64,000 nucleotides of DNA from an uncultured Gammaproteobacteria bacterium. GTDB lineage: Bacteria > Patescibacteriota > Patescibacteriia > CAZSQN01. Below the pieces are notes generated by a model that searched no databases, had not been told where the DNA came from, and saw only the letters and a list, made by a program, of their open reading frames with translations. Positions 3,100 to 40,136 of this stretch are shown here, piece after piece (the first letter of the stretch is position 1; each line of letters begins with the position of its first letter). The translations under genes were made by a program, and so were the position numbers. The stretch spans positions 86,117-150,116 of the forward strand of contig CAZSQN010000001.1 in the NCBI GenBank assembly GCA_964609095.1. Reading direction: 5' to 3'.

Positions 3100-4239
3100 A
3101 TGAAAATGGCTTTGGTTCACGACTACTTAATCCAGGACGGGGGAGCCGAGCGGGTGCTTATGGCCTTGCACGAGATTTGGCCGGAAGCGCCGGTTTATGT
3201 TTTGATGCACGACCGCGGCCGGGCTAATCCCGCCTTTCGTAGCTGGGATATAAGAACTTCTTTTCTGCAGAAGATTCCTTTTGGCATGAGGCGCTATCAA
3301 TGGCTCTTGCCTTTAATGCCTACGGCCACCGAATCGTACAATCTCTCGGAGTATGATGTTGTTATTTCTTCTTCCTCCGCTTTTGCCAAGGGCATCATCA
3401 CTAAGCCGGAAACGCTTCATATTTCCTATTGCCACACGCCAACGCGGTATTTGTGGACGGACAGTTTGAGTTATGTTGAGGAGCTGCGCGCGCCAAAAAT
3501 AATCAAAGGACTCCTGCCGCCAGTGCTCTCGTATCTGCGGCTGTGGGACCGTCTCTCCAGCGACAGGGTAGGGGTCTTTGTGGCTAATTCAGAAACCGTT
3601 GCCGATAGAATCAGAAAGTATTATGGCCGAGATTCGGTCGTGATCCATCCGCCGGTGGAGGTGGAATCGTTTTATGTTTCCAAAGATATTGGAAATTATT
3701 ATCTTATCGGCGGACGATTGGTTTCTTACAAACGGTTTGACATAGCGGTTAAGGCATTTTCGGAGCTGAATATCCCCCTAAAAATTTTTGGCGAAGGTCC
3801 GGAGTTAAATCATTTGCGTTCTCTTGCCAAAGCAAATGTGGAATTTTTGGGACGGATCAGCGAAGAAGAAAAGCGTCGGCTCTACAGCCGCTGCGTCGCC
3901 TTTCTCCATCCGCAGGTTGAGGATTTTGGCATTACGGCCGTTGAAGCCATGGCTTCCGGCAGGCCGGTTATTGCTTATCGCCGCGGCGGCGCGATGGAAA
4001 CGGTTCTTCCGGGCGTGACCGGCGTATTTTTTAACGAGCAGACCTGGGAAAATCTGGCTCATACCATTATCAGATTTAAGCCGGAATTGTTTAACGGAGA
4101 AATTATCCGGCAACACGCTTTTGCTTTTGGCCAAGCCCGTTTTGGGAGCGCTATGAAAGAATTGGTTCAGAAAGAGTGGGCTACTTTTTGCGCCAGACGC
4201 GGCATAGCGGCAGAAAAACAAATAAGCATGCCCGCCTAA
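3100..4239 (+). CDS. glycosyltransferase family 4 (GT-B fold)
   Basis: GT4 architecture with C-terminal E-x7-E-like motif region (FLHPQVEDFGITAVEAMASGRPVIAYRRGG). Start ambiguous between 3082 GTG, 3100 ATG and 3106 ATG. Confidence 0.75.
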   Translation: MKMALVHDYLIQDGGAERVLMALHEIWPEAPVYVLMHDRGRANPAFRSWDIRTSFLQKIPFGMRRYQWLLPLMPTATESYNLSEYDVVISSSSAFAKGIITKPETLHISYCHTPTRYLWTDSLSYVEELRAPKIIKGLLPPVLSYLRLWDRLSSDRVGVFVANSETVADRIRKYYGRDSVVIHPPVEVESFYVSKDIGNYYLIGGRLVSYKRFDIAVKAFSELNIPLKIFGEGPELNHLRSLAKANVEFLGRISEEEKRRLYSRCVAFLHPQVEDFGITAVEAMASGRPVIAYRRGGAMETVLPGVTGVFFNEQTWENLAHTIIRFKPELFNGEIIRQHAFAFGQARFGSAMKELVQKEWATFCARRGIAAEKQISMPA

Positions 4240-4252
4240 ATTTTTTTCGCTT

Positions 4253-5407
4253 ATGTGGATTTGCGTTGACGGACGGGTCTTGCAGGATAAAGTTGGCGGC
4301 GGCGTGCAAAAATACGCTAAGCATCTTATGGATGCTCTTTTTAATTTGGACAAAGAAAATAATTATATTATTTTTACCAATTCTTACGGAGCGAGCGGCA
4401 TCCCGCAATTTTCCTATCACAACGTATTTGAAGCCGCTTTTTCATATCCAAACAAGATTCTTAACGCCCTGATTTTATCGCGCCGGCTATATTTGGATGA
4501 TTTGATTGAAAAAGAAATATCCCGAAAGTTTGGAAAAAAGATTAAATTAGACGCGTTTTGGGCCCCGAATCTGAATTTTGTCAATCTCCGGCCGGAAACT
4601 AAATTTTTGCTCAGCGTTCACGATATCTCCTTTTTGATTGAACCGGAATTTTTTACGCTCAAAGAAAGGATTTGGCATAAATTGGTAAACCCAAAGCTAT
4701 TATTTAATCGGGCCAACGCGCTTTTGCCGGTTTCTTGTTCAACGGCCGCTGATTTAGATAGAATCGGCGCGGAAAAAAACAAAGTATCGGTTATTTATCC
4801 GGGCATAGAACAAAAATATTTTCAAGAAATCAGCGAAGCAGAATTAAAACGGGTTCGGAACAAATATAATTTGCCGGAGAAGTTTATCCTGACTCTGGCG
4901 GCGGCCGGCAAGAGGAAAAATTTTGAAGGAGCAATCAAGGCGTTTCAAAACGGCAATATCGGCAAAGACATAAAATTGGTTATTGCCGGTTTTGGCACGG
5001 GCATAGCGCGCGCTTCTCGCGAGAGAATTATTTTTTTAGGTTCGGTGGATGAAGATGACTTGGCCGCCTTATACAAATCAGCGCAAATTTTTATTTATCC
5101 GTCTTTTTACGAGGGTTTTGGCTTCCCGCCCCTTGAAGCGGCCGCAGTCGGGACGCCGGTCATCGCGGGAAACGCGACTTCTATGCCTGAGGTTTGCGCT
5201 GGAAGCGCGATGCTTGTTAATCCTCATGACGCAAATGAACTTTCTTCGGCCATAACCGCGCTCGCCAATGAGTCCGCGCGGCAAAGTTATCTGTTGAATC
5301 GCGGACAAAATCGCGTTGCTGATTTTTCTTGGGCTGAATCGGCCCGTCTTCTTTTGAAATCATTTGAGAATTTAAAAAAACCGTCTCTTTTTGAGACGGA
5401 ATCTTAA
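4253..5407 (+). CDS. glycosyltransferase family 4
   Basis: GT4 C-terminal motif IYPSFYEGFGFPPLEAAAVGTPVIAGNATSMPEV and the N-terminal GGVQKY motif typical of GT4. Confidence 0.75.
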   Translation: MWICVDGRVLQDKVGGGVQKYAKHLMDALFNLDKENNYIIFTNSYGASGIPQFSYHNVFEAAFSYPNKILNALILSRRLYLDDLIEKEISRKFGKKIKLDAFWAPNLNFVNLRPETKFLLSVHDISFLIEPEFFTLKERIWHKLVNPKLLFNRANALLPVSCSTAADLDRIGAEKNKVSVIYPGIEQKYFQEISEAELKRVRNKYNLPEKFILTLAAAGKRKNFEGAIKAFQNGNIGKDIKLVIAGFGTGIARASRERIIFLGSVDEDDLAALYKSAQIFIYPSFYEGFGFPPLEAAAVGTPVIAGNATSMPEVCAGSAMLVNPHDANELSSAITALANESARQSYLLNRGQNRVADFSWAESARLLLKSFENLKKPSLFETES

Positions 5408-5871: not shown

Positions 5872-7017
5872 TTGTCAACCTTCACGGCCCTTGATATACT
5901 TTATTATATGATGCGAGTAGGCATTGACGCTCGGTTTTGGGGAACAAACACAGGCATAGGCCGTTATGTGGAAGAACTGGTAAAGGCAATGTTAAAGGAA
6001 GCGGCCGGAGCGGAATTTGTTCTTTTTTTAAGGAAAAATAACTGGGATATGGCTCCGGAGGGGGCGGAGCGCGTTTTGGCCGACTGCCGCTGGTACACCT
6101 TGGGCGAGCAGATTTTATTGCCGCGAATCTTTGACGGCGCGAAGTGCGATTTAATCCATTTTCCGCATTGGAATGTTCCGGTCGGAGTGCGCACGCCTTA
6201 TGTTTTGACGATTCACGACCTGCTCCTTCTTCGGCATCCGTCGGCGCGCGCCACTCTTTTAGGACCGTTGCGTTACGCCGTCAAGAAGATGGGTTTTAAC
6301 TTTGTTTTGCGCAAAGCCGTCTCTAATGCCCGCGCCATTATTTCGCCGTCGGAATTCTCGGCGCGGCGCGTCAGAGAGCATTTTCCAGGTTCGGCTTCAA
6401 AGATTAAGGTTGTTTACGAAGGCCTTCCCGCTCTTAAAAGCGGTCCGGAATTTTCCTCGCTGGAGCAAAGGGGCGCGCGGAAACCATACCTGTTTTATGT
6501 CGGCAACGCTTATCCGCACAAAAATTTGGAAACGCTGATTGCGGCCGCGATTAAATTGCGCGAGAGCGGAGAAGAAATCAATCTGGTTTTAGCCGGAAGA
6601 AAAGACGCTTTTTACGAACGTTTGGAAGATAAATTCGGTTCGGAGAAATCTGTGATTTTTTTTGGCGAGGCAACGGACGAAGAACTGGACACGTTGTACA
6701 AAAATGCCGAGGCCTATGTATTTCCGTCTTTGGAAGAAGGTTTTGGTCTGCCCGGGCTTGAAGCCGTGGCAAGAGGGATTCCGGTTATAGCTTCGGAACG
6801 CGGCGCCTTGCCGGAAATATATGGAAATGCCGCCCTGTATTTTAATCCTGATAAAGTCGGCGAGCTTGCCGGCGCCATTGCCAAAATAAGGCGCGAGAGC
6901 GAGTTTAGAATCAAAATGATTAGAGAGGGCAATGAACGGGTTAAAAGATTTCAGTGGGAAGAAGCGGCTCGCCAAACATTTGATATTTATAAAAACGCGT
7001 TAAATTTCAAACCCTGA
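5872..7017 (+). CDS. glycosyltransferase family 4
   Basis: GT4 motifs (GIGRYVEEL; VFPSLEEGFGLPGLEAVARGIPVIASERGALPE). In-frame TTG at 5872 sits 5 nt after a perfect SD AAGGAGGA (5859-5866). Alternative ATG at 5908. Confidence 0.7.
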   Translation: MSTFTALDILYYMMRVGIDARFWGTNTGIGRYVEELVKAMLKEAAGAEFVLFLRKNNWDMAPEGAERVLADCRWYTLGEQILLPRIFDGAKCDLIHFPHWNVPVGVRTPYVLTIHDLLLLRHPSARATLLGPLRYAVKKMGFNFVLRKAVSNARAIISPSEFSARRVREHFPGSASKIKVVYEGLPALKSGPEFSSLEQRGARKPYLFYVGNAYPHKNLETLIAAAIKLRESGEEINLVLAGRKDAFYERLEDKFGSEKSVIFFGEATDEELDTLYKNAEAYVFPSLEEGFGLPGLEAVARGIPVIASERGALPEIYGNAALYFNPDKVGELAGAIAKIRRESEFRIKMIREGNERVKRFQWEEAARQTFDIYKNALNFKP

Positions 7018-7021
7018 TTTT

Positions 7022-9568
7022 GTGAAGGAAACAAATAAAAAAAAGAACCAGCGGCTTGAGATAGTGGAAGAGGATGAGGCAATAACTCTTAAATTTGATT
7101 TGGGCCCACATGAGAGGTCGCCTCATCTTTTGGATCTTGATTCCATTTCGACCGCGGCGTTTCAGAGCCGCGATGAGCAGGTTAAGGATTTCTGGACGGG
7201 AGCAGTCAAGCCGCCAAGGCCCGGCAGAATGAAAAGATTTATCGCCAATCTGCGCGGCGTTTTTGAAAATGAGCGCGAGCACCGCTTGCTTGCGCCGGGT
7301 AAGCCGCGATTATTGGCCGATCTCTTCGATGAGCTTTTAATCTGCAATCTGTTCGAGATAATATTTATCGGAGCGCGGGCTGTTTTTACAGCTTATTTTT
7401 CGGCGTTGGTTTTTTGCGCCGGGCTTTTGCGCCGGGAAGACAAAATCCAGCCGGAGGCCTCGAGATTGGCAAAAGCGGAAAGTTTTGGGAAAGCGCGCGT
7501 TCCGGTTTTTCTGACCAAGGTTCCGCTTTTACCCGGACTTAGCAGCCGGGTTGTTCCTTTGGCGCGAAAAGATTTAAGTTTTTTGCGTTTTTCCCCTCCG
7601 GTCAGATTTGAACGGGCGCTTGTTTCTTTCGTGCTTCTGGCTTTTGTTTTTATTCTGCCTTTGCGCGTTGCTTCAACCTACGGCGAGGTAAACCGGACGA
7701 AATCAGTTCTGCTTCAAAAAAGCGTGGCCGCTTTTGAGTCGTTGAATAAATCCTGGAGCCAAGTGGGAAATCTTGAGGCCGCGGCCGCCGCTTTTGAAGA
7801 TGCCAGCGAAGGATTTGACGCCGTCCTAAAAGATATTGAAGAAACGCATCAAATTTTGCAGAAAGCCGCCTCTGTTCTGCCCGAAGGAGAACAGCTTGAT
7901 GCCGGAAAATCATTGCTTCTCGCCGGTTCTTTGGTGGCCGCTTCGGCAGAAGTGCTGGCCGGACGGCTCGCCGCTTTAAACGATTCTGCCCTGCCTCCGG
8001 CGGAGCGCGTGCATCAGCTTGGAGAAAGTTTGAATACGGCTTTGCCCTTGTTGCAGAACGCCAGAGAAAAGCTTGATTCAATTTCGGTTGAAGTGATACC
8101 TGCGGAATACAGGAACGGCGCCGCCGCGGCCATGGCTCTGTTGGATCAAGTGATAGAAGGAGTGGAAAGCTCGGAAGCGGCCACTTCTGTTTTAGAATAT
8201 ATCCTTGGCAGGACTGAACCGAGAAGATTTCTTGTTGTTTTTCAAAATAATGCGGAATTGCGGCCGACGGGCGGGTTTATCGGCTCGTTTGCCGAAATTG
8301 ATTTTGCCGCCGGCGATATTACCCGCATGTGGATGCCGGGCGGCGGCTCGTATGAGCTCCAGGGAGGTTTGCGGGCAACAGTCATTCCGCCCGAACCGCT
8401 GCAGCTTATTGCTTCGCGCTGGGAGTTCCAGGACGCCAACTGGTTTCCGGATTTCCCGTCTTCGGCCAGAAAGTTAATGTGGTTTTATGAAAAATCCGGC
8501 GGTCCGACCGTTGACGGCGTTATCGCGCTCACTACTTCCGTGGTTCAAAAATTATTGCAGGTGACCGGGCCGATTGAGATGCCCGAATACGGCAAGATAA
8601 TCACCGCGGATAATTTCTGGCTGGAGACGCAGAAGGCCGTGGAATTGGAATACGATAAGGAGGAAAACAGGCCCAAACAGTTTTTAGCCGATTTGGCGCC
8701 CAAGCTTATCGCGCGCCTTAAAAGCAATGACCCGAAAACATTTTTTGCTTTAGCCAAAGCTCTGGCCGAAACAATCGGAGAGAAACATTTTCAGATTTAT
8801 CTGCGGGACCAATCCGCGCAGGAGAAAATCACGCATTTGGGCTGGGGAGGCGAATGGCGGCCAACTTCCGGCGATTCCTTGGCTATTGTCAATACCAATG
8901 TGGCCGGCGGCAAAACAGATGGAATCATAAGCGAGCACATCAAGCATTCCGCCAAAGTTGATGAGGACGGCTCGACAGTGGTAACGGTTGAGGTAACACG
9001 CGCTCATCAAGGAGTCAAGAATGAACTTTTTAGAGGCGTGCGCAATGTTGATTACGTGAGAATTTATGTTCCCGAGGGTTCTACCCTGCTTGAATCAAGC
9101 GGCTGGAGAAAGCCGGTCCAGTCCCTTTTTAATATTATTGACGAGAACGCTAATCCGGATACGGATCTGATCTCGGCCGATGCCGGCTCGGCCGAAGAAC
9201 CGGCAACGGGCACTAAAATCAGCCATGAATTCGGCAGAACTGTTTTTGGAAATTGGATTATGGTTGATCCCGGAGAGACCGTCACTTACAAGCTGGCATA
9301 CCGTCTGCCGCAGAAGATAACTTTTAGCCAGGCAGAGAACGGATTTTTGGAAAAAATTGGTTTGCGCGAAAAGGATATTCCGCAAGCGTCTTACAGTTTA
9401 TTGCTTTTGAAGCAGGCCGGAACCGTCAATACCACTTTTGAACATTCGGTGGAGCTGCCGGCTGATTGGCAAGTTATTTGGCGCAACGCTCCGGAAGCCG
9501 GCAAGTCCCTGCCTTTGGACAGAGACAGGTTTTTCGGGGTTGTGGCCACGCCGGCCCACGGTTTATGA
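7022..9568 (+). CDS. DUF4012-like large membrane-anchored protein
   Basis: 848 aa, N-terminal TM segment, conserved LVVFQNNAELRPTGGFIGSFAEIDF block recalled from DUF4012 proteins that pair with DUF11-type surface proteins in CPR genomes. GTG start; 4-bp overlap with the next gene. Confidence 0.6.
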   Translation: MKETNKKKNQRLEIVEEDEAITLKFDLGPHERSPHLLDLDSISTAAFQSRDEQVKDFWTGAVKPPRPGRMKRFIANLRGVFENEREHRLLAPGKPRLLADLFDELLICNLFEIIFIGARAVFTAYFSALVFCAGLLRREDKIQPEASRLAKAESFGKARVPVFLTKVPLLPGLSSRVVPLARKDLSFLRFSPPVRFERALVSFVLLAFVFILPLRVASTYGEVNRTKSVLLQKSVAAFESLNKSWSQVGNLEAAAAAFEDASEGFDAVLKDIEETHQILQKAASVLPEGEQLDAGKSLLLAGSLVAASAEVLAGRLAALNDSALPPAERVHQLGESLNTALPLLQNAREKLDSISVEVIPAEYRNGAAAAMALLDQVIEGVESSEAATSVLEYILGRTEPRRFLVVFQNNAELRPTGGFIGSFAEIDFAAGDITRMWMPGGGSYELQGGLRATVIPPEPLQLIASRWEFQDANWFPDFPSSARKLMWFYEKSGGPTVDGVIALTTSVVQKLLQVTGPIEMPEYGKIITADNFWLETQKAVELEYDKEENRPKQFLADLAPKLIARLKSNDPKTFFALAKALAETIGEKHFQIYLRDQSAQEKITHLGWGGEWRPTSGDSLAIVNTNVAGGKTDGIISEHIKHSAKVDEDGSTVVTVEVTRAHQGVKNELFRGVRNVDYVRIYVPEGSTLLESSGWRKPVQSLFNIIDENANPDTDLISADAGSAEEPATGTKISHEFGRTVFGNWIMVDPGETVTYKLAYRLPQKITFSQAENGFLEKIGLREKDIPQASYSLLLLKQAGTVNTTFEHSVELPADWQVIWRNAPEAGKSLPLDRDRFFGVVATPAHGL

Positions 9569-13931: not shown

Positions 13932-13955
13932 ATATTAGACATCTTCACAGGATTA

Positions 13956-13984
13956 TTGACAAAAAGCAAGATTTGTGATAAGTT
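13956..13984 (+). promoter_or_regulatory. sigma70-like promoter (TTGACA-N17-TAAGTT) plus conserved ~60-nt leader, copy A
   Basis: TTGACA at 13956-13961. The whole 13950-14043 block is ~85% identical to 22073-22170. Confidence 0.55.
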
Positions 13985-14040
13985 AACTTAATCGTTCCTT
14001 AACTTCAGAATAAGGAAAATCAAGCCAAAAAGGAGCGCAA

Positions 14041-21969: not shown

Positions 21970-22077
21970 AACACAGATACGAATAACATCCGAATGAGAT
22001 ACGAATGACGCGAATATTCGGATTATTTGGATGCATTCGTATATAATTCGTATTTCTGTTGTATTGTCGCAAAAATA

Positions 22078-22106
22078 TTGACAAAAAGCAAGATTTGTGA
22101 TATTCT
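22078..22106 (+). promoter_or_regulatory. sigma70-like promoter plus conserved leader, copy B
   Basis: TTGACAAAAAGCAAGATTTGTGATA identical to copy A. Leader is conserved up to the SD. Confidence 0.55.
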
Positions 22107-22167
22107 GACTTATTCGTTCCTTAACCTCAAAACAGGGAAAATCAAACAAATAAGGAGGGTAAGAAAG

Positions 22168-23266: not shown

Positions 23267-23343
23267 AGGGTAAAGGGGACAGGGTATAGGGTATAGTTTT
23301 TAAAAACTATTTTCTAAACCCTAAACCCTAAACCCTAAACCCT

Positions 23344-23976
23344 ATGGTAAAGGTAATCCCTGCAATTCTGGCAAAGACAAAAGAGGAGTTTGAAAGCAAG
23401 GTTAAGACCGCGGCTGATTTTGCGAGCGAAATCCAGCTGGATATAATGGACGGGAAATTCGTGTCCAATATCACCTGGGGCGCGCCTGAAGAAATAAAAA
23501 AAATGAACCTGCCGCCATTTGAAGCGCATTTAATGATCCAAAATCCGGAGCGGGAAGTTAGCAAATGGGCAGAAGCCGGAGCTAAACGAATCATTGCCCA
23601 TATTGAAGCCATAACCGACCTTCCATTATATATAGAAGCGGTGAAAAAAGCGGGATGCGGGGCCGGAGTGGCCATAAACCCGGAAACATCGGTTGAAGCC
23701 GTCTCTGATTTTCTTTCCAATCTTGACGCCGTGTTGGTGATGGGCGTGAACCCCGGCTTTAGCGGGCAGGAATTTAATCCAACGGCGTTAATAAAAGTTG
23801 CGGAATTAAGAAAATTGAATCAGAATATATCTATAGAAGTTGATGGGGGCGTTTCTTTTGTCAACGCAAAAGAATTGGCCGAAGCCGGGGCTGATGGATT
23901 AGTTGTTGCCAACGCTATTTTTAAATCCGATACGCCAAAAGCGGCTTATGAAAAGCTTTTAACCGCGATTAAATAA
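23344..23976 (+). CDS. rpe: ribulose-phosphate 3-epimerase
   Basis: RPE motifs (IPAILAKT, QLDIMDGKFV, AHLMI, VMGVNPGFSGQ). Confidence 0.8.
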   Translation: MVKVIPAILAKTKEEFESKVKTAADFASEIQLDIMDGKFVSNITWGAPEEIKKMNLPPFEAHLMIQNPEREVSKWAEAGAKRIIAHIEAITDLPLYIEAVKKAGCGAGVAINPETSVEAVSDFLSNLDAVLVMGVNPGFSGQEFNPTALIKVAELRKLNQNISIEVDGGVSFVNAKELAEAGADGLVVANAIFKSDTPKAAYEKLLTAIK

Positions 23977-28900: not shown

Positions 28901-28966
28901 GGACTATGGTAAAGGGTATAGAAATTCACTAAACCCTAAACCCTAAACCCTAAACCCTAAACCCTA

Positions 28967-29935
28967 ATGTACGACATAATTACAATCGGCGCGGCAACCA
29001 AAGACGTTTTTTTGGAAAGCGGCAGTTTTAAATTTATCAAATCGCCGGAGTTTGCCGGAGGCACGGGCGAATGCCTTTCATTTGGTTCTAAAAATGAAGT
29101 CAGGAATATCTTTTTTTCAACCGGCGGCGGAGCCACTAATGCCGCCGTCACGTTTTCCCGCCTGGGCCTCTCTGTCGCGGCTCTTACCAGAGTGGGAAGA
29201 GATTCTTTCGGAGATGATATTATTGCCGCTTTAAAAAACGACAATGTTTCCGTAAAGCTGATTCAGCGCGATCCCGCGCTTAAAACCGCTTACTCAACCT
29301 TGCTTATGCAGGGGCCCGGCGAGAGAACGGTGCTTGTTTATCGCGGCTCGTCAGCAAAAATTAACGCGCGGGAGTTGCGGCAGGTGAGGACAAAGTGGAT
29401 TTACGTGACTTCTCTCGGAGGCCAGATTGATTTGCTTCGGAAAATATGGAGCTGGGCTCGTAAAAATAAAGTAAAAATCGCCTGGAATCCCGGAGGAGAA
29501 GAGCTAAAGTCGGGTTTGGAAAAACTTCTGCCTTTTATAAAACAGTGCGAAGTGTTCAATGTTAATCGCGAAGAAGCCGCTAGGGTTACCGGTTGCGGCT
29601 GGAGAGACAGGGAATGTTTGTTTGCCAATCTCTGCGGCAAGGCCACCTATGTTTTGATCACGGACGGAGAGCGCGGGGCGTATTGTTGCGGCGCCGGTGA
29701 GCGTTTTTTCGCTTCGTCGCTTGGCACCAAACCGAAAAATACGACAGGCGCCGGCGACGCCTTTGGCTCCGCCTTTGTGGCCGGCCTTATTTTAAGAAAC
29801 AGTGTTGATTTTGCTCTGCGGCTCGCCATTTTAAACGCCGACTCTGTTATCAGGCAGATGGGGGCTAAGACGGGAATTTTAAAAAAGTTGCCAAGCAAGG
29901 CAGTTTTATCTAAAATAGAAATAAAGAAACTGTAA
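28967..29935 (+). CDS. PfkB-family carbohydrate kinase (second copy)
   Basis: MYDIITIGAATKDVF N-terminus and TGAGDAFGSAF C-terminal motif. Confidence 0.75.
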   Translation: MYDIITIGAATKDVFLESGSFKFIKSPEFAGGTGECLSFGSKNEVRNIFFSTGGGATNAAVTFSRLGLSVAALTRVGRDSFGDDIIAALKNDNVSVKLIQRDPALKTAYSTLLMQGPGERTVLVYRGSSAKINARELRQVRTKWIYVTSLGGQIDLLRKIWSWARKNKVKIAWNPGGEELKSGLEKLLPFIKQCEVFNVNREEAARVTGCGWRDRECLFANLCGKATYVLITDGERGAYCCGAGERFFASSLGTKPKNTTGAGDAFGSAFVAGLILRNSVDFALRLAILNADSVIRQMGAKTGILKKLPSKAVLSKIEIKKL

Positions 29936-30921: not shown

Positions 30922-30996
30922 ACAATTAAAGCGTTTAGCGATTAGCGTATAGCGTTTAGTTTTTCTAAACCCTATACCCTAAAGTAGAAACTTGTT

Positions 30997-31497: not shown

Positions 31498-32286
31498 TTA
31501 TTTAATGCTAATCTTCAAACCGTCGTAGGCAAGCTGTACGGGAAACCGGCAGCTTTTTGTTTTAGCGATTTTTTTAAGTTCTCGCTGCGCTTTCTCATGC
31601 GGAGGATAGCTGTGGCCGGATTGAGTGATGAACAGCTTTTTAGGATGTAATTCTTTGGCAAAATTGATTGTGTCCGGAGCGGTAAAATGCCCGCGCAGCC
31701 GTTTTATATTCCAGAAGGCGCCGTCTAAAATAACCGTTTTTGTATTTTTGATTATCCGCCTTGCTCGAGCGGAAGCTCTGTCCATGTCTGAAGCGTAAAA
31801 AAGATCGCGGCCAAAAAGAAAGCCGTAGGTTGGAAGCGGAATCAGACCGTGCCGTACCGGGATAAAAGAAATTTTTTTGCCAAATAAAGTTGTTCGGCTG
31901 AATGGCCGGCTTGGCTTGGGTATGGCGGCGGAAGGAAGAAGCTTTTTTATGTATTTTAGGGTTGAAGAATGGGAAAATACGAGTATTGGCGGATGAGAGT
32001 TTCGGGCAAGCCATTTTTTAAGGTCGGACAGGCCGCCATAGGCATCGTCATGGCCATGGGTAATAAAGACGGCGTCTATCTTTTTAAGACGCGCGCGTTT
32101 TGCCTGTTCCAAAAAATCCGGGGAAACATCAATTAAGATATTTTTTCCGCCGAACTGAAGCATGGCCGAGCTCCTGTGCCTACGGCTTTTTGAACCGGGT
32201 TTGCGCGCCGCGCGGCAAAGCAAGTCCCGGTGCCCGGCTCTTGGTATGGCGCGCGACGGCCCAGAGCCAAGAAAAGTGAGCTGCAT
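31498..32286 (-). CDS. MBL-fold metallo-hydrolase
   Basis: HxHxDH motif (ITHGHDDAYGG). PhnP/ComEC-like beta-lactamase fold. Confidence 0.7.
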   Translation of the reverse strand: MQLTFLGSGPSRAIPRAGHRDLLCRAARKPGSKSRRHRSSAMLQFGGKNILIDVSPDFLEQAKRARLKKIDAVFITHGHDDAYGGLSDLKKWLARNSHPPILVFSHSSTLKYIKKLLPSAAIPKPSRPFSRTTLFGKKISFIPVRHGLIPLPTYGFLFGRDLFYASDMDRASARARRIIKNTKTVILDGAFWNIKRLRGHFTAPDTINFAKELHPKKLFITQSGHSYPPHEKAQRELKKIAKTKSCRFPVQLAYDGLKISIK

Positions 32287-32312
32287 ATCTAACTATTGTA
32301 CCATATGAATTT

Positions 32313-32345
32313 TGACAAAAGAGCAAAAAAATGATATTTTTAGAT
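32313..32345 (+). promoter_or_regulatory. sigma70-like promoter for tRNA-Ala (TTGACA-N17-TATTTT)
   Basis: TTGACAAAAGAGCAAAAAAATGATATTTT ends 8 nt upstream of the tRNA 5' end. Confidence 0.45.
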
Positions 32346-32352
32346 AGTTTAC

Positions 32353-32426
32353 GGGCCATTAGCTTAATGGCAGAGCACCCGGTTTGCATCCGGGAGATGA
32401 GAGTTCGATTCTCTCATGGTCCACCA
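32353..32426 (+). tRNA. tRNA-Ala (anticodon TGC), CCA encoded
   Basis: GGGCCATTAGCTTAATGGCAGAGCACCCGGTTTGCATCCGGGAGATGAGAGTTCGATTCTCTCATGGTCCACCA. Confidence 0.85.
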
Positions 32427-33920
32427 TTTCAGATTTGCCGAAGAAGTTGCCTCGGGGCTTCGCCCCTCGGCATTGGTTTCCGCCAAGAAATTCCAGGGGG
32501 TTTTGAATTCCGCCAAAAGAATTCCCGCCGCAAGTCGGCGGTTCGAGCCGATGGAAACAAGAAAATCTCTCATCAGTGAGGGATTTTCTTGTTTAGAGAG
32601 ATTTACGGCTTGGTTGGCTTCAATAATCCAGTTTCGCATGAGTTCGAGCCAATGATTACCTTTTCGCTCAAAATCAGATAATTTCTCCTCAATTGTTTTC
32701 TTTTCCGCCATTAAAACATTCTTTTTCTCTTGATACTCGGCAAGTTCCAACGCCTCGCCTAAATATGCGTCTGTCAGTCGCTCCAGTCGTATTTTAATGG
32801 CGGAAATACTATCGCGGAGATTTTGAGCGAAAAGGTCTGATGAGTGGCGGGATTCTTTGTTCTCATTTTCCAGTTTTGCCAAAAACTTTTCCCGCCACTC
32901 ATCGGGCAAAGAAACTTTTTGACAAAGATTTTTCACTTGTTCAGTTAGCACTTCTTCCCGCAAAAAGCGATTTTCAGTGCATTGAATAGTTTTGCTCTTG
33001 TGGGTGCAACGATAATAAATGAATTTCAAACCACTTTTCTTGATATGTCGCTCGGCGGTTATGGCGTAGCCACAAACCCCACAAGTAGCAAAACCTAAAA
33101 ACTGAAAATTCTTCGGTCCTCGCTTTTTGCGGGGTTTCCCATTCTGAACAAGCGCCTTTTGTATCTCGTCAAAAAGTTTCTTTGAAATCATTGGCTTATG
33201 CGAACCTTGATGCACCTCGCCACGATATTGAAAATGTCCGTAGTAAAAAGGATTTGTGAGTATGTGTTCAATACTGGCGAGGTGCAAAGGTTTGCCCGTC
33301 TTGCCAACCAAGCCAAGAGAAAACATTTTGCGCTGAATTGCCGTGAGCGTATATTGTCCCGTAGCAAAAGCCTCTAACGCTTCTTTTACTTTACCAAAGG
33401 TCTTTTTGTCTGGCTCAATCGTGCGAAGTCGTGGCTCGTTGAAATATCCGAGAGGGGCTTTTGCCGATAATTCACCACGCCTAATTTTTTGGCGAATACC
33501 ACGCAAAATGTTTTCTCTTAAATTGTCGGTGTAATACTTTGCTTGTCCGAAGGCGACACTCAACATAAATTTTCCTTGGGGTGTCGCCTCGAACCAGAAA
33601 GTAGGGAATTTTAGCGATTGGATTTTGAGTGTATCCACCAAGTAAATGACACGCCCGCCGTCAATCGAGTTACGAGCTAATCTATCGGGGTTCCACGCTA
33701 AAATTCCCTGTGCGGTGCCTTTTTCAATTTCGCCAAGCATTTCGTTAAAAATCTCTCGCCCTGGCTCTTTGGCGGTTTTTGATTCGTAGTATTCACGAGC
33801 AACGAAAAGAGAATTTTGCTTGGCGAAATCACGCAATTCTTGAAGTTGTGCCTCAATACTCAAAACTTGGCGTTCCTCATCCTCACTAGATTTACGACAA
33901 TAGATAAAGTATTTGATCAT
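32364..33920 (-). CDS. large serine recombinase (resolvase/invertase catalytic domain + recombinase domain + zinc ribbon)
   Basis: N-terminal serine-recombinase catalytic motif (YCRKSSEDEERQVLSIEAQ; catalytic Ser in RKSS). Central recombinase domain and Cys pairs (CGVCG...YYRCTH). ORF runs through repeat 'a' and terminates inside tRNA-Ala. Start MIKYF at 33920; the upstream TTG-initiated extension is encoded by repeat a'. Confidence 0.8.
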   Translation of the reverse strand: MIKYFIYCRKSSEDEERQVLSIEAQLQELRDFAKQNSLFVAREYYESKTAKEPGREIFNEMLGEIEKGTAQGILAWNPDRLARNSIDGGRVIYLVDTLKIQSLKFPTFWFEATPQGKFMLSVAFGQAKYYTDNLRENILRGIRQKIRRGELSAKAPLGYFNEPRLRTIEPDKKTFGKVKEALEAFATGQYTLTAIQRKMFSLGLVGKTGKPLHLASIEHILTNPFYYGHFQYRGEVHQGSHKPMISKKLFDEIQKALVQNGKPRKKRGPKNFQFLGFATCGVCGYAITAERHIKKSGLKFIYYRCTHKSKTIQCTENRFLREEVLTEQVKNLCQKVSLPDEWREKFLAKLENENKESRHSSDLFAQNLRDSISAIKIRLERLTDAYLGEALELAEYQEKKNVLMAEKKTIEEKLSDFERKGNHWLELMRNWIIEANQAVNLSKQENPSLMRDFLVSIGSNRRLAAGILLAEFKTPWNFLAETNAEGRSPEATSSANLKWWTMRESNSHLPDANRVLCH

Positions 33921-34409
33921 AGAATTGCGTGATTGAATTGCACCGCACTTACACCGACAATTTCTAAAATCTCTCATCGGCTCTTGCGCCTTTGGCGCAA
34001 TCCAAACTTTGTTTGGGAACCGCCGACTTTCGGCGGGAATGCTTTTGGCGGAATTCAAAACCCCCTGGAATTTCTTGGCGGAAACCAATGCCGAGGGGCG
34101 AAGCCCCGAGGCAACTTCTTCGGCAAATCTGAAATGGTGGTGTTTGTTTGAAAAAGTCAGAACCCATTTTGCGGAGAACCCTGAAAACTAATGCGGACTC
34201 GGCAGGGCGAAACATTTGACTGGGGATATGGATTCGCCCTGCCTCGGCTGATTTCCCGCCCGCAGGAGGGGTCTGGGGAGGAATGCGGGCGGGTTTCGGA
34301 CTGGGGGTTTTCGGAAAAAAATTCTCGGCTACAAAATTGATAAAAGTCCTCATATCTGTTAGTATAATACTACGAACGAAATCAAGCAACAGTTAAATGT
34401 TATCAATAT

Positions 34410-34613
34410 ATGGAAAGTAATCAACTGGGACTGAAAATAAGGAAATTGCGACAGAAACTAGGGCTTTCTCAAGACGATTTTGCTCGTAAGGCGGATGTTG
34501 CCTATACAACGCTTACCAAAATTGAAACTGGTGTTATTAAAAAGCCTTCTGTATTTGTTGTGAGCAAAATCGCCAAAGTCCTAGATGTCGCAATTGAGGA
34601 ATTGATAAAATAA
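34410..34613 (+). CDS. XRE-family helix-turn-helix transcriptional regulator
   Basis: LGLKIRKLRQKLGLSQDDFARKADVAYTTLTKIETG is a canonical HTH_XRE. Confidence 0.8.
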   Translation: MESNQLGLKIRKLRQKLGLSQDDFARKADVAYTTLTKIETGVIKKPSVFVVSKIAKVLDVAIEELIK

Positions 34614-34617
34614 TTTT

Positions 34618-35145
34618 ATGACAGGAACAAACAATAATTCAGTTTCGCTCGCCGGAGAATTTGCGGTTTTGTCGCAACTTGCTCTCCGAGGGTATGACGC
34701 AAATATGACACTTGGGCGAACGAAAAACGTTGATATTTTGGTATCCGATCCAAAGAATTTGAAAATGTATAAACTTGAAGTCAAAACTAATTATCAAAAT
34801 AGCCGAAATAAACCACAAGTTTCAAAAGTTCACGGCAAAATCGTAAGCGGTTGGATTATGAATAAGAAACACGAGGAAATAACAGACCCCGATCTTTTCT
34901 ATTGTTTCGTAAACATTGGAAAGCAAACAAACATTTTCAAATTCTACATTGTTCCAAGTAAAATCGTGGCAAAATATGTTAAGGAGGAACATCAAAATTG
35001 GCTTGAGGAAAAGAAAAAGGAAGCCAAAAAAGTTAAAGATTCAGAAATGAGGATTTTTCGTATCGGACTGAAAATTGAAAAATACGCGGTCAGCACACCG
35101 ACAGCAGAACAATATGAGGATAATTGGGAATTTAAGACATCATAA
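34618..35145 (+). CDS. PD-(D/E)xK nuclease-fold protein (YraN/Hjc-like core) with C-terminal extension
   Basis: Pattern GEFAVLSQLALRGY...VDILVSD...YKLEVKT parallels the bona fide YraN at 39771 (GEEMARKFLIKKGF...IDIVAA...HFVEVKA). 4-nt gap to the upstream HTH gene. Confidence 0.55.
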   Translation: MTGTNNNSVSLAGEFAVLSQLALRGYDANMTLGRTKNVDILVSDPKNLKMYKLEVKTNYQNSRNKPQVSKVHGKIVSGWIMNKKHEEITDPDLFYCFVNIGKQTNIFKFYIVPSKIVAKYVKEEHQNWLEEKKKEAKKVKDSEMRIFRIGLKIEKYAVSTPTAEQYEDNWEFKTS

Positions 35146-35149
35146 AATT

Positions 35150-35770
35150 ATGGAAAATAAAACCACTGATATAAATGATTTAGTTTTACAGCTTGCCGTT
35201 ATGGCAATGAAACCCGTGTTAAACGATGAGGTATGGCAATGCTACGGCTATAAAAAGAAACCGAAACATGGAAGTATATGGGATAAAATTTTCCCTAAAA
35301 TGTTTGCTTTGGATCATTTTATTTCAAAAGAAATTCTCACAATGGGGCTTATTGATGTGCTGAATGGAATTAAGAAATCGGCAGAAACCCCCGACACTAA
35401 ATTAGTAATTTCAATAGGAGTTGTTGATCAATTTCTATCTACCACAAAAAATATGTTTCCGTCAGATTTATTCATGGAAAATCTTTTTTCCACCTACGCT
35501 TCACATTTGAAAAGCGAAAAATCAAAAATCCACGAACCTGTAATATTAAAAGCCAAAGATATTTTGGATAAAAAAGATTTTGCGAAATTTATGGTCGGCA
35601 CTATTAGATTGCTTGCCATGGAACACACCGACGATTTTTTACTGAAAAGTGATTATATCAAGAGTTATGTCGAAAAATCTTCCAAAGACAACAAGCTAAA
35701 TATTTCTATGCCGAATGAAATTTATAAAAAATATTTACCTTTGATAGAGGAAAAAATATTGAAAGCTTAA
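35150..35770 (+). CDS. hypothetical protein (206 aa)
   Basis: Tightly linked (4-nt gap) member of the cargo operon. AT-rich codon usage. No recognised domain. Confidence 0.5.
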   Translation: MENKTTDINDLVLQLAVMAMKPVLNDEVWQCYGYKKKPKHGSIWDKIFPKMFALDHFISKEILTMGLIDVLNGIKKSAETPDTKLVISIGVVDQFLSTTKNMFPSDLFMENLFSTYASHLKSEKSKIHEPVILKAKDILDKKDFAKFMVGTIRLLAMEHTDDFLLKSDYIKSYVEKSSKDNKLNISMPNEIYKKYLPLIEEKILKA

Positions 35771-35780
35771 AATTTTTAAT

Positions 35781-36245
35781 ATGACAAACAACGAAAAAAT
35801 TTTAGAGCTTTCTTGGAACACGAACGACTTGCTATCTCAATATGTCGCAATTCACGATGATGTTTTCAAAACTTCAATTCGCCGCATAATTCCAATTCCA
35901 GGAATTTTTAAGGCGATTGATTTTGGCGAACATTTAAAAAAGATTGAAAACATCATTCCTGAATTAGAGAATTGCGACAAGGAAATAAAATCTATTATTG
36001 GCGATTTAACTAGTGATGAACGACAACACCTTGATTTATTATCCAAGTATGTTGGTGCATTGATTGAGACAGTAAGTCGTTTCAAAATAGTTCTCGGTGC
36101 GCTCTACGCCAAAAGCCAAAGTTTTGCTAATTCAAATTATGACTGGAAGAATTACAAAAATGACCTTGCAAGATACGAAGAGGCGGTACAAAATTATATG
36201 GCTTTTGGCGGGAAATTAAATGATTCTTTCCAGAAGATAAAATAA
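35781..36245 (+). CDS. hypothetical protein (154 aa)
   Basis: Last gene of the cargo operon. Its stop abuts inverted repeat b'. No recognised domain. Confidence 0.5.
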   Translation: MTNNEKILELSWNTNDLLSQYVAIHDDVFKTSIRRIIPIPGIFKAIDFGEHLKKIENIIPELENCDKEIKSIIGDLTSDERQHLDLLSKYVGALIETVSRFKIVLGALYAKSQSFANSNYDWKNYKNDLARYEEAVQNYMAFGGKLNDSFQKIK

Positions 36246-36542
36246 TAGCCGAGAATTTTTTTCCGAAAACCCCCAGTCCGAAACCCGCCCGCATTCCTCC
36301 CCAGACCCCTCCTGCGGGCGGGAAATCAGCCGAGGCAGGGCGAATCCATATCCCCAGTCAAATGTTTCGCCCTGCCGAGTCCGCATTAGTTTTCAGGGTT
36401 CTCCGCAAAATGGGTTCTGACTTTTTCAAACAAACACCACCAAATTGAATTAGTCGCCTCGCTCGGGGCTTCGCCGTTCTTGCGACAATTCAGAGATTGG
36501 CTGACAAGTTTGGCGTGTTAGTTGATGATCTAAAAAATTATT

Positions 36543-36983
36543 ATGGAAAAACAGCTTACAAAAATTGGAGATGGCGTAATCTGCCCGATTGCGGTGATGG
36601 TAAAAGACGGCAAAGTGCTTGCCGGTCACCGCCACTATACAAAAGACAAATGGAAAGATATTTCCGTCTGGACAATTCCTGGCGGCAGGTCTGACGCGGG
36701 CGAAATAATTGAGCAAACTCTGCGGCGAGAAGTCGCCGAGGAAGTCGGCATTACTGAATTTGAGATTGTAGATTTTATTGGTGAAGCGCCCGGGGCAAAG
36801 GATGGTGATACGGTTCTCGTGTTTTACTGCGCAACAAAGCAAGAGGCAAAGCTCATGGAGCCGGAAAAATTTTCCGAATGGCGTTGGGTTCCGATTAAGG
36901 ATTACATTATTGGAGAATCATATAGCGGCTTTAATCCTCTGGCGCGGAGAATGATTACTGATTATCTGTTGAATTTAAAATAA
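36543..36983 (+). CDS. NUDIX hydrolase
   Basis: Nudix box GGRSDAGEIIEQTLRREVAEEVGI. Confidence 0.8.
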   Translation: MEKQLTKIGDGVICPIAVMVKDGKVLAGHRHYTKDKWKDISVWTIPGGRSDAGEIIEQTLRREVAEEVGITEFEIVDFIGEAPGAKDGDTVLVFYCATKQEAKLMEPEKFSEWRWVPIKDYIIGESYSGFNPLARRMITDYLLNLK

Positions 36984-36985
36984 CA

Positions 36986-37750
36986 ATGAAACTTATATCA
37001 TTAAATACATGGGGCGGTCGTGCTGGAAAGGAAAAGCTTCTTGCGTTTTTCGCGAAACACAAAGACGCGGATATTTTTTGTTTGCAAGAAATATGGTCTG
37101 CTCCATATGAACATTTAGAAGGATATTCCGCGGGCGGAATTAATATTAGTCACTCTAATATAATGGTTTATGGAATGCAGGAGATATCCGCTTTACTTCA
37201 TAGCCACACAGCGTATTTTAAACCGCACCATCTGGATAATTACGGTTTAATGATGTTGGTCAAAAAGAATTTAGATGTAATTTCGGAAGGAGATGTGTTT
37301 GTCTATAAAGAAAAAGGACACATACCCGAAGAAGACGTCGGTTTCCATGCGCGGAATGTGCAATATGCGACTATCACAACCCAAAAAGGAAATAGATCGA
37401 TATTGAATTTCCACGGCCTTTGGAACGGCAGAGGAAAAAGCGATAGCGAGGACAGATTATTGCAGTCGGATAAGATCATTCGGTTTATGAAAACTCTATC
37501 CAACCCGTATGTTTTGTGCGGTGATTTTAACCTTTTACCTGATACGCAGAGCATTAAGAAACTGGAGGATTCCGGTCTCCGCAATCTTATTAAGGAATAT
37601 GGAATCACTTCAACGCGCACGAGTTTATACGGCAAAAAAGAGAAATTTGCTGATTATGCTTTGATTAGCGAGGGAATGGCAGTAAATGATTTTAAGGTGC
37701 TGCCAGATGAGGTTTCCGATCACTGTCCTCTTTATTTAGAATTTGAGTAG
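36986..37750 (+). CDS. endonuclease/exonuclease/phosphatase (EEP) family protein
   Basis: EEP motifs (ISLNTWGG, DIFCLQEI, GDFN, SDHCPLYLEF). Confidence 0.75.
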   Translation: MKLISLNTWGGRAGKEKLLAFFAKHKDADIFCLQEIWSAPYEHLEGYSAGGINISHSNIMVYGMQEISALLHSHTAYFKPHHLDNYGLMMLVKKNLDVISEGDVFVYKEKGHIPEEDVGFHARNVQYATITTQKGNRSILNFHGLWNGRGKSDSEDRLLQSDKIIRFMKTLSNPYVLCGDFNLLPDTQSIKKLEDSGLRNLIKEYGITSTRTSLYGKKEKFADYALISEGMAVNDFKVLPDEVSDHCPLYLEFE

Positions 37751-39770: not shown

Positions 39771-40136
39771 ATGTCAACTCGCGCGCGGGGAAATCTGGGC
39801 GAGGAGATGGCGCGGAAGTTTTTAATCAAAAAGGGCTTCAAGATATTGGAAAACCAGTTTTTCGCGCGCGTGGGCGAGATAGACATTGTGGCCGCCCGCC
39901 GCGGCCGTCTGCATTTTGTGGAGGTTAAGGCAAGAAGCTCGTCCGAGTTTGGCTATCCGGAAGAGGCCCTGACCCGTACTAAAAGCGAGCGCGTGCGCAA
40001 AGCGGTCGGGTTATATCTTCTTAAAAACAGAATAGCGCACCAAAATTATCAGATTGACTTAATAACCGTGGAGCTCGACTGGGTAACGCATCGGGCGCGC
40101 GTGCAATATATTGAAAACGCGGTGGGAGAATGGTAA
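39771..40136 (+). CDS. yraN: YraN-family (UPF0102) endonuclease
   Basis: GNLGEEMARKFLIKKGFKILENQFFARVGEIDIVAA...HFVEVKAR. Confidence 0.75.
   Translation: MSTRARGNLGEEMARKFLIKKGFKILENQFFARVGEIDIVAARRGRLHFVEVKARSSSEFGYPEEALTRTKSERVRKAVGLYLLKNRIAHQNYQIDLITVELDWVTHRARVQYIENAVGEW

Follow-up and report, generated by a model that had tools for sequence, protein, structure and literature searches.

A mosaic four-gene cargo operon on a small serine-integrase element inserted at a tRNA-Ala gene of a Patescibacteria genome

The window analysed here is a stretch of 64,000 nucleotides from contig CAZSQN010000001.1 of assembly GCA_964609095.1, and the system in question is a compact operon within it, whose four genes encode an XRE-family regulator, the nuclease P2 and the proteins P3 and P4 (Table 1). 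We found that this operon is the cargo and regulatory arm of an integrative element of about 4.0 kb (32427-36442), which resides in a genome of the Patescibacteria (candidate phyla radiation, CPR). The four genes do not form one fixed system but are a mosaic of three independently moving parts. The cargo is an accessory hotspot of a known kind on a small integrative element; its main interest lies in the uncharacterised families of P3 and P4 and, more than in these, in the conserved frame of double inverted repeats. To our knowledge, the tiny genomes of Patescibacteria contain few recognised mobile elements or defence systems. The locus shows how accessory genes are traded in such genomes, by a minimal tRNA-targeting serine-integrase element with a fixed backbone and a swappable slot. 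Our preferred overall reading, to which we give an even chance, is that of a tRNA-Ala element with a mosaic operon, in which the slot is a hotspot, P2 an endonuclease and P3-P4 a module serving the element.

The mosaic became apparent from sister elements, which always carry the XRE gene, a variable stretch and the P3-P4 pair. In the window, the variable stretch is the P2 gene. The minimal version of the element, on locus L092, has an empty slot and consists of XRE, P3 and P4 alone. Elsewhere the slot is taken by a 229-aa protein (L084), by three proteins of 57, 51 and 218 aa (L081/L082), by a 321-aa membrane protein (L089), by proteins of 237 and 115 aa (L093) or by a 202-aa protein (L007). 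The constancy of XRE and P3-P4 across the sisters identifies them as the backbone and places P2 in an exchangeable slot. The elements are framed by long inverted repeats, termed arms A, A', B and B' in the window, and the arms of L084, L081/L082 and L014 are 96-100% identical to those of the window over inner arm B (69-93 nt matched). The recognisable occupants of the slot act on incoming DNA or phage: besides the nuclease, the 218-aa protein of L081/L082 is a lipoprotein with two Ltp domains (1.8e-22), as in Ltp superinfection exclusion (PF07553). Moreover, an Mrr-type restriction nuclease accompanies P2 on L014, a fragment framed by the same arm. A defence-type role is thus plausible for the variable slot only. 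The fixed position between the backbone genes XRE and P3, filled with varying genes in close relatives, recalls the hotspots of P2/P4-like phages. Unlike in known defence hotspots, most slot genes have no recognisable domain, and no known defence system was matched.

The first-pass annotation of the window had read the four genes as one candidate defence or toxin module. If they were an obligate system for defence or abortive infection, or a toxin-antitoxin system, XRE would act as its regulator or antitoxin and P2 as the nuclease effector, with P3 and P4 as accessory subunits. This would suit the tight operon with its 4-10-nt spacers, the mobile context, the domain-level kinship of XRE with the helix-turn-helix (HTH) domains of antitoxins and control proteins, and the contiguity of the block in independent assemblies. 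However, the four-gene combination was found in this lineage only. In 55 unique loci, P2 lacks a conserved neighbour; its largest neighbour clusters are N4/N6 methyltransferases (5), Cas4-like nucleases (4) and serine recombinases (4), and methyltransferases lie near it in only about 7 of the 55. XRE-P3-P4 exists without P2 in L092 and with other genes in its place, P2 also occurs without P3-P4, and PADLOC-DB 2.0 contained 0 families for P2, P3 and P4, while XRE matched generic HTH models only. We therefore regard a single four-gene system as very improbable. Of the synteny that such a module would imply, the pairing of XRE with P3-P4 is kept in sister elements, but the four-gene cassette is not kept as a unit.

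The mobility of P2 can be followed in detail. A 564-nt P2 module, 94% identical to that of the window, adjoins a HicA toxin gene on L013, and the same module precedes a 107-aa protein and the Mrr-type nuclease (Mrr_cat, 4.8e-10) on L014 and L015. In all three loci, the module keeps the last 21 nt of an XRE gene upstream and shares TAAAATTATGGAA at its downstream boundary. The XRE remnant and the common boundary indicate that genes were reshuffled at start/stop junctions. As a separate observation, the gene boundaries have near-identical stop/start junctions (…ATAAAATAA-N1-4-ATG… and TAAAATTATGGAA) without a Shine-Dalgarno sequence, and the recombination breakpoints between cassettes coincide with them.

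The element that carries the operon has the order tRNA-c-A-rec(-)-A'-c'-B-cargo-B'-c-chromosome, where c denotes the core and rec the recombinase gene. The earlier view of the operon as cargo on a mobile backbone was borne out by the large serine recombinase, the insertion at tRNA-Ala and the foreign base composition. The recombinase contains the Resolvase (PF00239, 1.3e-18), Recombinase (PF07508, 1.6e-11) and Zn_ribbon_recom (PF13408, 1.2e-7) domains, and a short common core is present at both junctions with foreign DNA in between, as in serine-integrase elements. It matched the integrase family phrog_95 of PHROGs at 1.5e-71 and resembled XisF/CcrB with a score below the cut-off. An exact look-up of the recombinase product returned no record, and phage collections yielded matches to N-terminal fragments only. 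This enzyme placed the element in the tRNA-Ala gene, the crossover falling within the 3'-terminal CCACCA. The window contains no second copy of the tRNA 3' end, and no empty attB was found among the contigs with an identical NUDIX gene, all of which break in arm B'. An Rfam scan of 32000-37000 matched the tRNA only. The NUDIX (PF00293, 3e-20) and EEP (PF03372, 2e-19) genes do follow the operon, as had been noted, and have a host-like composition. Because they lie beyond the right core, they are flanking genes outside the element, and we rejected them as cargo.

The 3' end of the recombinase gene is intertwined with the integration site. Host DNA supplies the stop codon, which falls within the tRNA gene, and the last ~41 recombinase codons lie in arm A on the minus strand, so that this arm is coding. 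The open reading frame (ORF) traverses arm A and continues on the antisense strand of the tRNA, as do those of its relatives in L087, L067, L025, L056 and L046. Owing to this read-through, attP and the 3' end of the gene overlap. None of the six ORFs has its own stop codon before the att core, so that the C-terminal tail of the enzyme changes upon integration. A terminator-like hairpin also lies inside the recombinase tail.

The gene structure of the operon was confirmed as first described, with AT-rich ORFs separated by spacers of 4, 4 and 10 nt. The GC content of the cargo genes is 0.32-0.38, as compared with 0.40-0.52 for the flanking host genes and 0.466 for the whole window. One start had to be corrected: gene 3 begins with the ATG at 35150 (MENK/MDNK), because all 30 aligned homologues begin there, and the TTG at 35075 chosen by the ORF lister is wrong. 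The independently assembled Logan contig L139 (1974 nt) contains the identical four-gene block plus 30 nt of each arm. Furthermore, the right junction is identical in the independent sequences L134 (GCA_016181485.1, JACOZF010000007.1), L135 and L136. The ratios of nonsynonymous to synonymous substitution rates (dN/dS) against the nearest relatives are 0.055 for P2, 0.07 for P3 and 0.08-0.09 for P4 (overall 0.055-0.094), which identifies all three as real genes under purifying selection.

The assignment of gene 1 to the XRE family held (HTH_3, 1.3e-16); it resembles control proteins of restriction-modification (R-M) systems, capH and antitoxin-type HTH proteins at the domain level only. A promoter-like site follows arm B, and the perfect 6+1+6 palindrome TAGTATAATACTA overlapping it is a candidate XRE operator. 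A motif akin to the palindrome, TTGTAGTAT, lies upstream of XRE in L005 and L009.

P2 had been annotated as a YraN/Hjc-like PD-(D/E)xK nuclease. The nuclease part of this assignment stood, on the grounds of motif and fold, but the likeness to YraN did not. E14, D39, E54 and K56, with the last two forming E54-x-K56 of a GE...D(I)L...E-V-K motif, are invariant in 31 homologues of 65-90% identity. The AlphaFold (AF2) model is confident, with a pLDDT of 86, and has the alpha/beta core of restriction endonucleases in the order helix-strand-strand-strand-helix-strand. In Foldseek searches, its best PDB match was the homing endonuclease I-Ssp6803I (2ost) over the full length, with an E-value of 4e-5 and a TM score to the target of 0.56-0.63, followed by the nuclease domains of SPARDA systems, EcoRV, Hjc and DpnI; all significant matches were PD-(D/E)xK nucleases. 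The family PDDEXK_5 (PF11645) was matched by 8 of 31 close relatives, at best with 2.6e-5, and the window P2 itself had no match to it at E<1. From the model, P2 is predicted to be a metal-dependent PD-(D/E)xK nuclease whose catalytic motif is intact. The family closest to it is PDDEXK_5/I-Ssp6803I, not YraN: P2 did not match UPF0102 (PF02021), to which the window's own YraN (39771-40136) scores 5.5e-24, and hhalign of P2 against this YraN gave a probability of 0.2%, aligning the D-I...E-V-K stretch. YraN/UPF0102 and archaeal Hjc share the superfamily and the order of catalytic motifs with P2, yet Hjc ranks below I-Ssp6803I, the SPARDA nucleases and EcoRV, at an E-value of about 5e-3 and a TM score to the query of 0.33-0.36. 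Sequence searches against the PDB with P2 alone and with its profile returned noise only (5mlp; ribosomal uL23), and PHROGs contributed families of unknown function only.

I-Ssp6803I, the PD-(D/E)xK homing endonuclease from the tRNA-fMet intron of Synechocystis, is, like P2, a small single-domain nuclease with an E...D...ExK motif. The two differ in that they share only 11-12% sequence identity, and P2 is free-standing in an operon rather than inside a group I intron. Moreover, P2 bears a conserved C-terminal extension past the nuclease core, which comprises about 60 aa (residues 114-175) and not ~80 as first estimated. Published work likewise places Hjc and type II restriction enzymes next to I-Ssp6803I in structure (PMC3384342). 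P2 has at least 980 homologues, of which the best 120 are 65-96% identical. At 50-87% identity, the gene is found in Patescibacteria, Acidobacteriota, Omnitrophota, Gammaproteobacteria (Proteobacteria), Cyanobacteria, Elusimicrobia and an archaeal bin. P2 thus belongs to a compact I-Ssp6803I-like nuclease family found in more than ten phyla, often in small islands beside tRNA genes or between direct repeats.

This kinship raises the question of whether P2 could be a selfish free-standing homing-type endonuclease, which would cut alleles of a specific site that lack P2 and be copied in by repair with no benefit to host or element. The best fold match, the PDDEXK_5 hits among the relatives, the spread of the gene at 50-87% identity across phyla and the several copies just downstream of tRNA genes would all agree with homing. 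So would its movement as a single gene, at 94% nucleotide identity between unrelated flanks and from ORF to ORF with 4-nt spacers. However, P2 lacks an intron or intein context: it is free-standing in the operon, the Rfam scan of 32000-37000 detected no intron RNA, and the flanks vary so widely that no single target site is evident. The XRE 3' remnant on L013-L015 and the microhomology at the start/stop junctions point to ordinary gene-boundary recombination rather than to homing. In addition, P2 hardly occurs in phages, which commonly have free-standing homing genes; phage collections contained distant Burkholderia-phage matches and one IMG/VR contig only. We consider homing an unlikely explanation, though one to be taken seriously. 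In one Patescibacteria locus, L003, a P2 homologue lies between tRNA-Ser and ruvA-ruvB; the placement may be due to chance, with the tRNA gene as an integration hotspot, yet a role in resolving junctions would agree with it.

P3 and P4, which the first-pass annotation could not match to anything, indeed fall in no housekeeping family. P3 lies directly upstream of P4 in all element loci examined. It is all-helical with a Cbp3-like fold, the Cbp3-type chaperone domain being its only fold relative; Foldseek against the PDB gave no match (best E 0.9), and no P3 was found in phage collections. A HEPN Rx4-6H motif in P3 was considered and rejected, as its residues are not conserved. P4 has 74 close homologues, and a profile search retrieved 727 clusters at E<=1e-3. 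Its invariant N-terminal motif is Y-x3-H-x3-F-x2-S...P-x-P (IHxxxFxxSxR..PxP). Pfam searches over all members of the P4 family produced coiled-coil noise only (PigL_N, Psu, ZapB), and P4 founds a large domain family without a Pfam match. Relatives of P4 form fusions with 2-4 transmembrane helices or a small beta-rich domain, and Pfam found nothing on ten such fusion proteins. Among close homologues, the gene directly before P4 encodes P3 in 9 unique loci and a 304-317-aa protein with six predicted transmembrane segments (6-TM) in 5. We rejected a relationship between P3 and the 317-aa partner, since BLASTP found nothing. A Patescibacteria genome and a Zixibacteria-binned contig share the 6-TM-P4 pair at 72-74% identity. 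Both P3-P4 and 6-TM-P4 are conserved adjacent pairs in operons headed by an HTH gene, with no match to toxin or antitoxin families. P3 and the P4 domain represent two widespread uncharacterised families under strong purifying selection. On L104-L107, a truncated P4 homologue (54% identical) lies just after tRNA-Ser between 81-nt direct repeats of that gene, and on L104 a ~1.5-kb array of ~93-nt tandem repeats follows downstream.

The constancy of XRE, P3 and P4 in sister elements, while the slot varies, could also mean that these genes are not cargo at all but the life-cycle module of the element, comprising a switch regulator and a recombination directionality factor, or proteins for excision, replication or maintenance. 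The XRE gene diverges from the recombinase gene across the internal attP-like region, which would suit such a module. The missing homology of P3 and P4 would be expected as well, since the directionality factors of serine integrases, such as Bxb1 gp47, phiC31 gp3 and TP901-1 Orf7, are unrelated to one another. Against this, P4 is kept in L009, which has no recombinase, and on the Zixibacteria-binned contig, where no recombinase is in the locus. Moreover, its pairing with a 6-TM protein and its fusion to transmembrane segments would be odd for a cofactor of DNA recombination, and the sole fold relative of P3 is the Cbp3-type chaperone domain. On balance, we give this explanation a minor share of the probability.

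The most unusual feature of the locus is its inverted-repeat frame. That the operon is exactly bounded by inverted repeats had been noticed before and proved correct: arms B and B' are 197 nt long, 100% complementary and present nowhere else in the window. B' begins on the base directly after the P4 stop codon, and B stops 78 nt ahead of the XRE start. The segment 34017-34331, comprising A', the core and B, is the reverse complement of the excision junction B'-CCACCA-A (98% for arm A and 100% for arm B). The outer sites thus look like attL and attR, and the middle A'-c'-B would represent an inverted attP. Judged by its sequence, the integrated element retains a full inverted copy of its own attP, by which recombinase and cargo are each framed by long near-identical inverted repeats. 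The junction of an excised circle is indistinguishable in sequence from this internal inverted attP, and over the length of the arms each junction equals its reverse complement. As computed, the circle would consist of two unique regions of 1472 and 1914 nt with two inverted repeats of ~320 bp between them.

The same layout recurs with different sequences on L087, a 7485-nt metagenome contig from another study, whose target is tRNA-Arg and which has a GCAC core at all three sites. Its recombinase is 43% identical to that of the window and is flanked by arms of 112 nt (100%). The cargo arms of 167 nt (98.8%) enclose XRE, a 317-aa protein and a P4 homologue. XRE-headed cargo with long arms is also present in L005, L009, L081/L082, L084, L086 and L093, and L007 and L088 have two tandem cassettes with a B'-type repeat after each. 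L009 is an L087-type deletion derivative without recombinase, the deletion starting 35 nt inside A and ending 60 nt inside B; on this account, we rejected the idea that the integrase-less islands L005 and L009 are a separate kind of transposon with terminal inverted repeats. Arm identity is 98.8-100% within one element, but differences of 3-18% separate the corresponding arms of different elements. The window and L084 agree at every position of the inner 93 nt of arm B, though the adjoining genes have a synonymous divergence (dS) of 0.26-0.29. The recombinase is on the minus and the cargo on the plus strand relative to the tRNA in the window, in L087 and in the armless L046; the short contigs cannot resolve isomers.

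The repeats and the exact bounds of the cargo could in principle stem from a chimeric or fold-back join in the assembly. Public assemblies do break at the arms, with L134 starting inside B' and L139 consisting of the cargo and 30 nt of each arm, and the arm lengths of 124-197 nt are close to those of short reads. However, the two-pair design was assembled independently in L087/L086, in another study and with different sequences, and cargo arms are also found in L005, L009, L081/L082, L084 and L093. The breaks 30 nt into both arms are those expected of a true inverted repeat in a k=31 graph (this k is assumed for Logan), and the arm boundaries fall at the tRNA end and the core hexamer. We thus consider an artefact extremely improbable.

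The arm hairpins are GC-strong with a fold z-score of -4.06, and one of them has a conserved C-rich loop. A GC-rich hairpin after the last cargo gene is kept in the window, L009 and L007. Its C-rich loop is nearly mirror-symmetric, TTCCTCCCCAGACCCCTCCT-like and similar to an anti-Shine-Dalgarno sequence, with no Rfam match; the stem halves are swapped between lineages, and the loop remains C-rich on the coding strand. In L081 and L082, the cargo arms extend over at least 408 nt, with a further internal palindrome around a CACC core, which suggests nested or decayed copies of the frame.

Functionally, the arms could be homology frames for cassette exchange or terminator-type insulators. We tentatively propose, as a possibility that we rate well below even, that the novelty lies in the frame rather than in the cargo. 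Patescibacteria would then have a family of ~4-kb elements with a large serine integrase and an XRE-headed operon, each set between long inverted repeats that evolve in concert, and the two inverted attP copies would constitute a flip-flop or cassette-exchange platform that carries an undescribed P3-P4 (or 6-TM-P4) module. If so, the element would consist of two invertible modules, and cargo would be swapped between elements via common arms. Full-text literature searches did not bring up a serine integrase with a double inverted-attP design; none of them was directed specifically at it. Standard serine-integrase models do not predict an internal inverted attP, and a functional one could be useful in recombinase tools, for example for cassette exchange.

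Invertible segments and flip-flop replicons are exemplified by the G segment of phage Mu and the C segment of P1 with Gin and Cin, and by the yeast 2-micron plasmid with FLP. Like these, the element combines a site-specific recombinase gene with adjacent segments that inverted repeats delimit. As in the P1 C segment, long repeats have the putative crossover cores at their outer ends, and the excised circle, with two unique regions between two inverted ~320-bp repeats, would resemble the 2-micron plasmid. Unlike Gin, Hin and Cin, the recombinase is a 518-aa integrase-type enzyme and not a small (~190 aa) invertase with a C-terminal HTH, nor is it a tyrosine recombinase like FLP. The three sites correspond to attL, an inverted attP and attR sharing half-sites pairwise, and not identical full sites as in those inversion systems. 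In further contrast to invertible segments, no inversion isomer was observed among the short contigs and no replication functions are present. The cargo also differs from integron cassettes, as the genes are spaced by 4-10 nt without attC and the recombinase is of the serine type, not a tyrosine IntI.

Among known elements, the tycheposons of Prochlorococcus likewise sit at tRNA genes of streamlined genomes and carry variable cargo, a minority of them having large serine recombinases, and they leave degenerate integrase-less remnants and tandem accretions (bioRxiv 10.1101/2020.12.28.424599). The recombinase-deleted derivative L009 and the tandem arrays L007 and L088 find their counterparts there. 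Unlike tycheposons, the present element measures only ~4 kb, lacks replication genes and has a core repeat of 4-6 bp. Furthermore, its recombinase ORF enters the tRNA, and long inverted repeats frame both recombinase and cargo.

In our preferred reading of a mosaic operon with a hotspot slot, the XRE repressor would most likely autoregulate the promoter just inside arm B. It would repress the operon, and perhaps also the divergent recombinase gene, via the palindrome at the -10 region. The slot would be a hotspot for accessory genes directed at incoming DNA or rival elements. As a metal-dependent endonuclease using E14, D39, E54 and K56, P2 might cut foreign DNA or a specific target, and its C-terminal ~60 aa would take part in DNA binding or oligomerisation. 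P3-P4 would serve the element itself, with P4 as the constant and the upstream partner, P3 or the 6-TM protein, as the exchangeable component. The module might act in addiction or exclusion, with a partner that can be exchanged, or else in the life cycle of the element.

Several points weigh against this reading. PADLOC, Pfam and NCBIfam models match none of P2, P3 and P4 of the window, so that a defence or addiction role has to be argued from context, and most of these contexts are short metagenome contigs. In the element, P2 is accompanied neither by a methyltransferase, as would be found in a type II R-M system, nor by an immunity gene, and an unregulated non-specific nuclease would be toxic. 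The best structural relative of P2 is a homing endonuclease, and by its modelled fold a purely selfish role would fit equally well. Finally, the constant P3-P4 could act in the life cycle of the element, for instance in excision control, apart from any defence.

Table 1. Coordinates of the element, its genes and sites, and of further features in the window and in related loci. Positions refer to the window unless a locus is named.
Feature	Position	Strand	Basis or remark
tRNA-Ala(UGC), integration target	32353..32426	+	ARAGORN; Rfam tRNA 69 bits; sequence
Left core copy CCACCA	32421-32426		last 6 nt of tRNA-Ala
Arm A, 124 nt, left element end	32421..32544		inverted repeat I2, 98%
Large serine recombinase, 518 aa from first Met of conserved N-terminus	32364..33920	-	
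Terminator-like hairpin in recombinase tail (tail region 32364-32544)	32541-32525	-	
Arm A', inverted copy of A, upstream of recombinase gene	34017..34140		inverted repeat I2
Middle core copy TGGTGG, inverted	34135-34140		exactly at meeting point of A' and B
Arm B, 197 nt, opens with TGGTGG	34135..34331		inverted repeat I1, 100%
Promoter-like site TTGATA-17-TAGTAT	34337..34365	+	consensus scan; follows arm B
Palindrome, candidate XRE operator	34360-34372		sequence
XRE-family HTH regulator, 67 aa, operon head	34410..34613	+	HTH_3
P2, predicted PD-(D/E)xK endonuclease, 175 aa, variable slot	34618..35145	+	
P3, all-alpha protein, 206 aa	35150..35770	+	
P4, helical protein, 154 aa, last gene	35781..36245	+	
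Arm B', 197 nt, closes with CCACCA	36246..36442		inverted repeat I1, 100%
Arm B' hairpin 1	36284-36322		10-bp GC stem, C-rich 19-nt loop
Arm B' hairpin 2	36334-36376		
Right core copy CCACCA	36437-36442		right end of element
Predicted empty attB			uninterrupted target …GGTCCACCA/AATTGAATTAG…
Stop/start junctions	34592-34617, 35143-35155; L013 1830-1853; L014 99-122, 648-660; L092 470-500		
Arms of L087	L087 3593-3704 / 5134-5245 / 5242-5407 / 7248-7414		
GC-rich hairpin after last cargo gene	36284-36322; L009 ~7515-7565; L007 ~6110-6160, ~8160-8205		
Extended cargo arms	L081 2575-2982; L082 2522-2929		
P2 homologue between tRNA-Ser and ruvA-ruvB	L003 5852-8541		
Direct repeats of tRNA-Ser, 81 nt	L104 3091-3171 / 3675-3755		
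Tandem array of ~93-nt repeats	L104 4897-6448		
TAAACCC runs	1579-1614, 23295-23344, 28924-28973, 30960-30995; related 38641, 39316, 55998		
Direct repeat, 96 nt	13945-14040 / 22067-22162		81%

Two further sequence features of the window lie apart from these subjects. Short tandem runs of the heptamer TAAACCC, with the variants TAAACGC and TATACGC, recur in intergenic regions across the window; they resemble plant-type telomere repeats and are probably a host intergenic signal. The 96-nt direct repeat comprises a TTGACA… promoter-like region and a Shine-Dalgarno sequence, and probably marks the paralogous upstream regions of two host operons.

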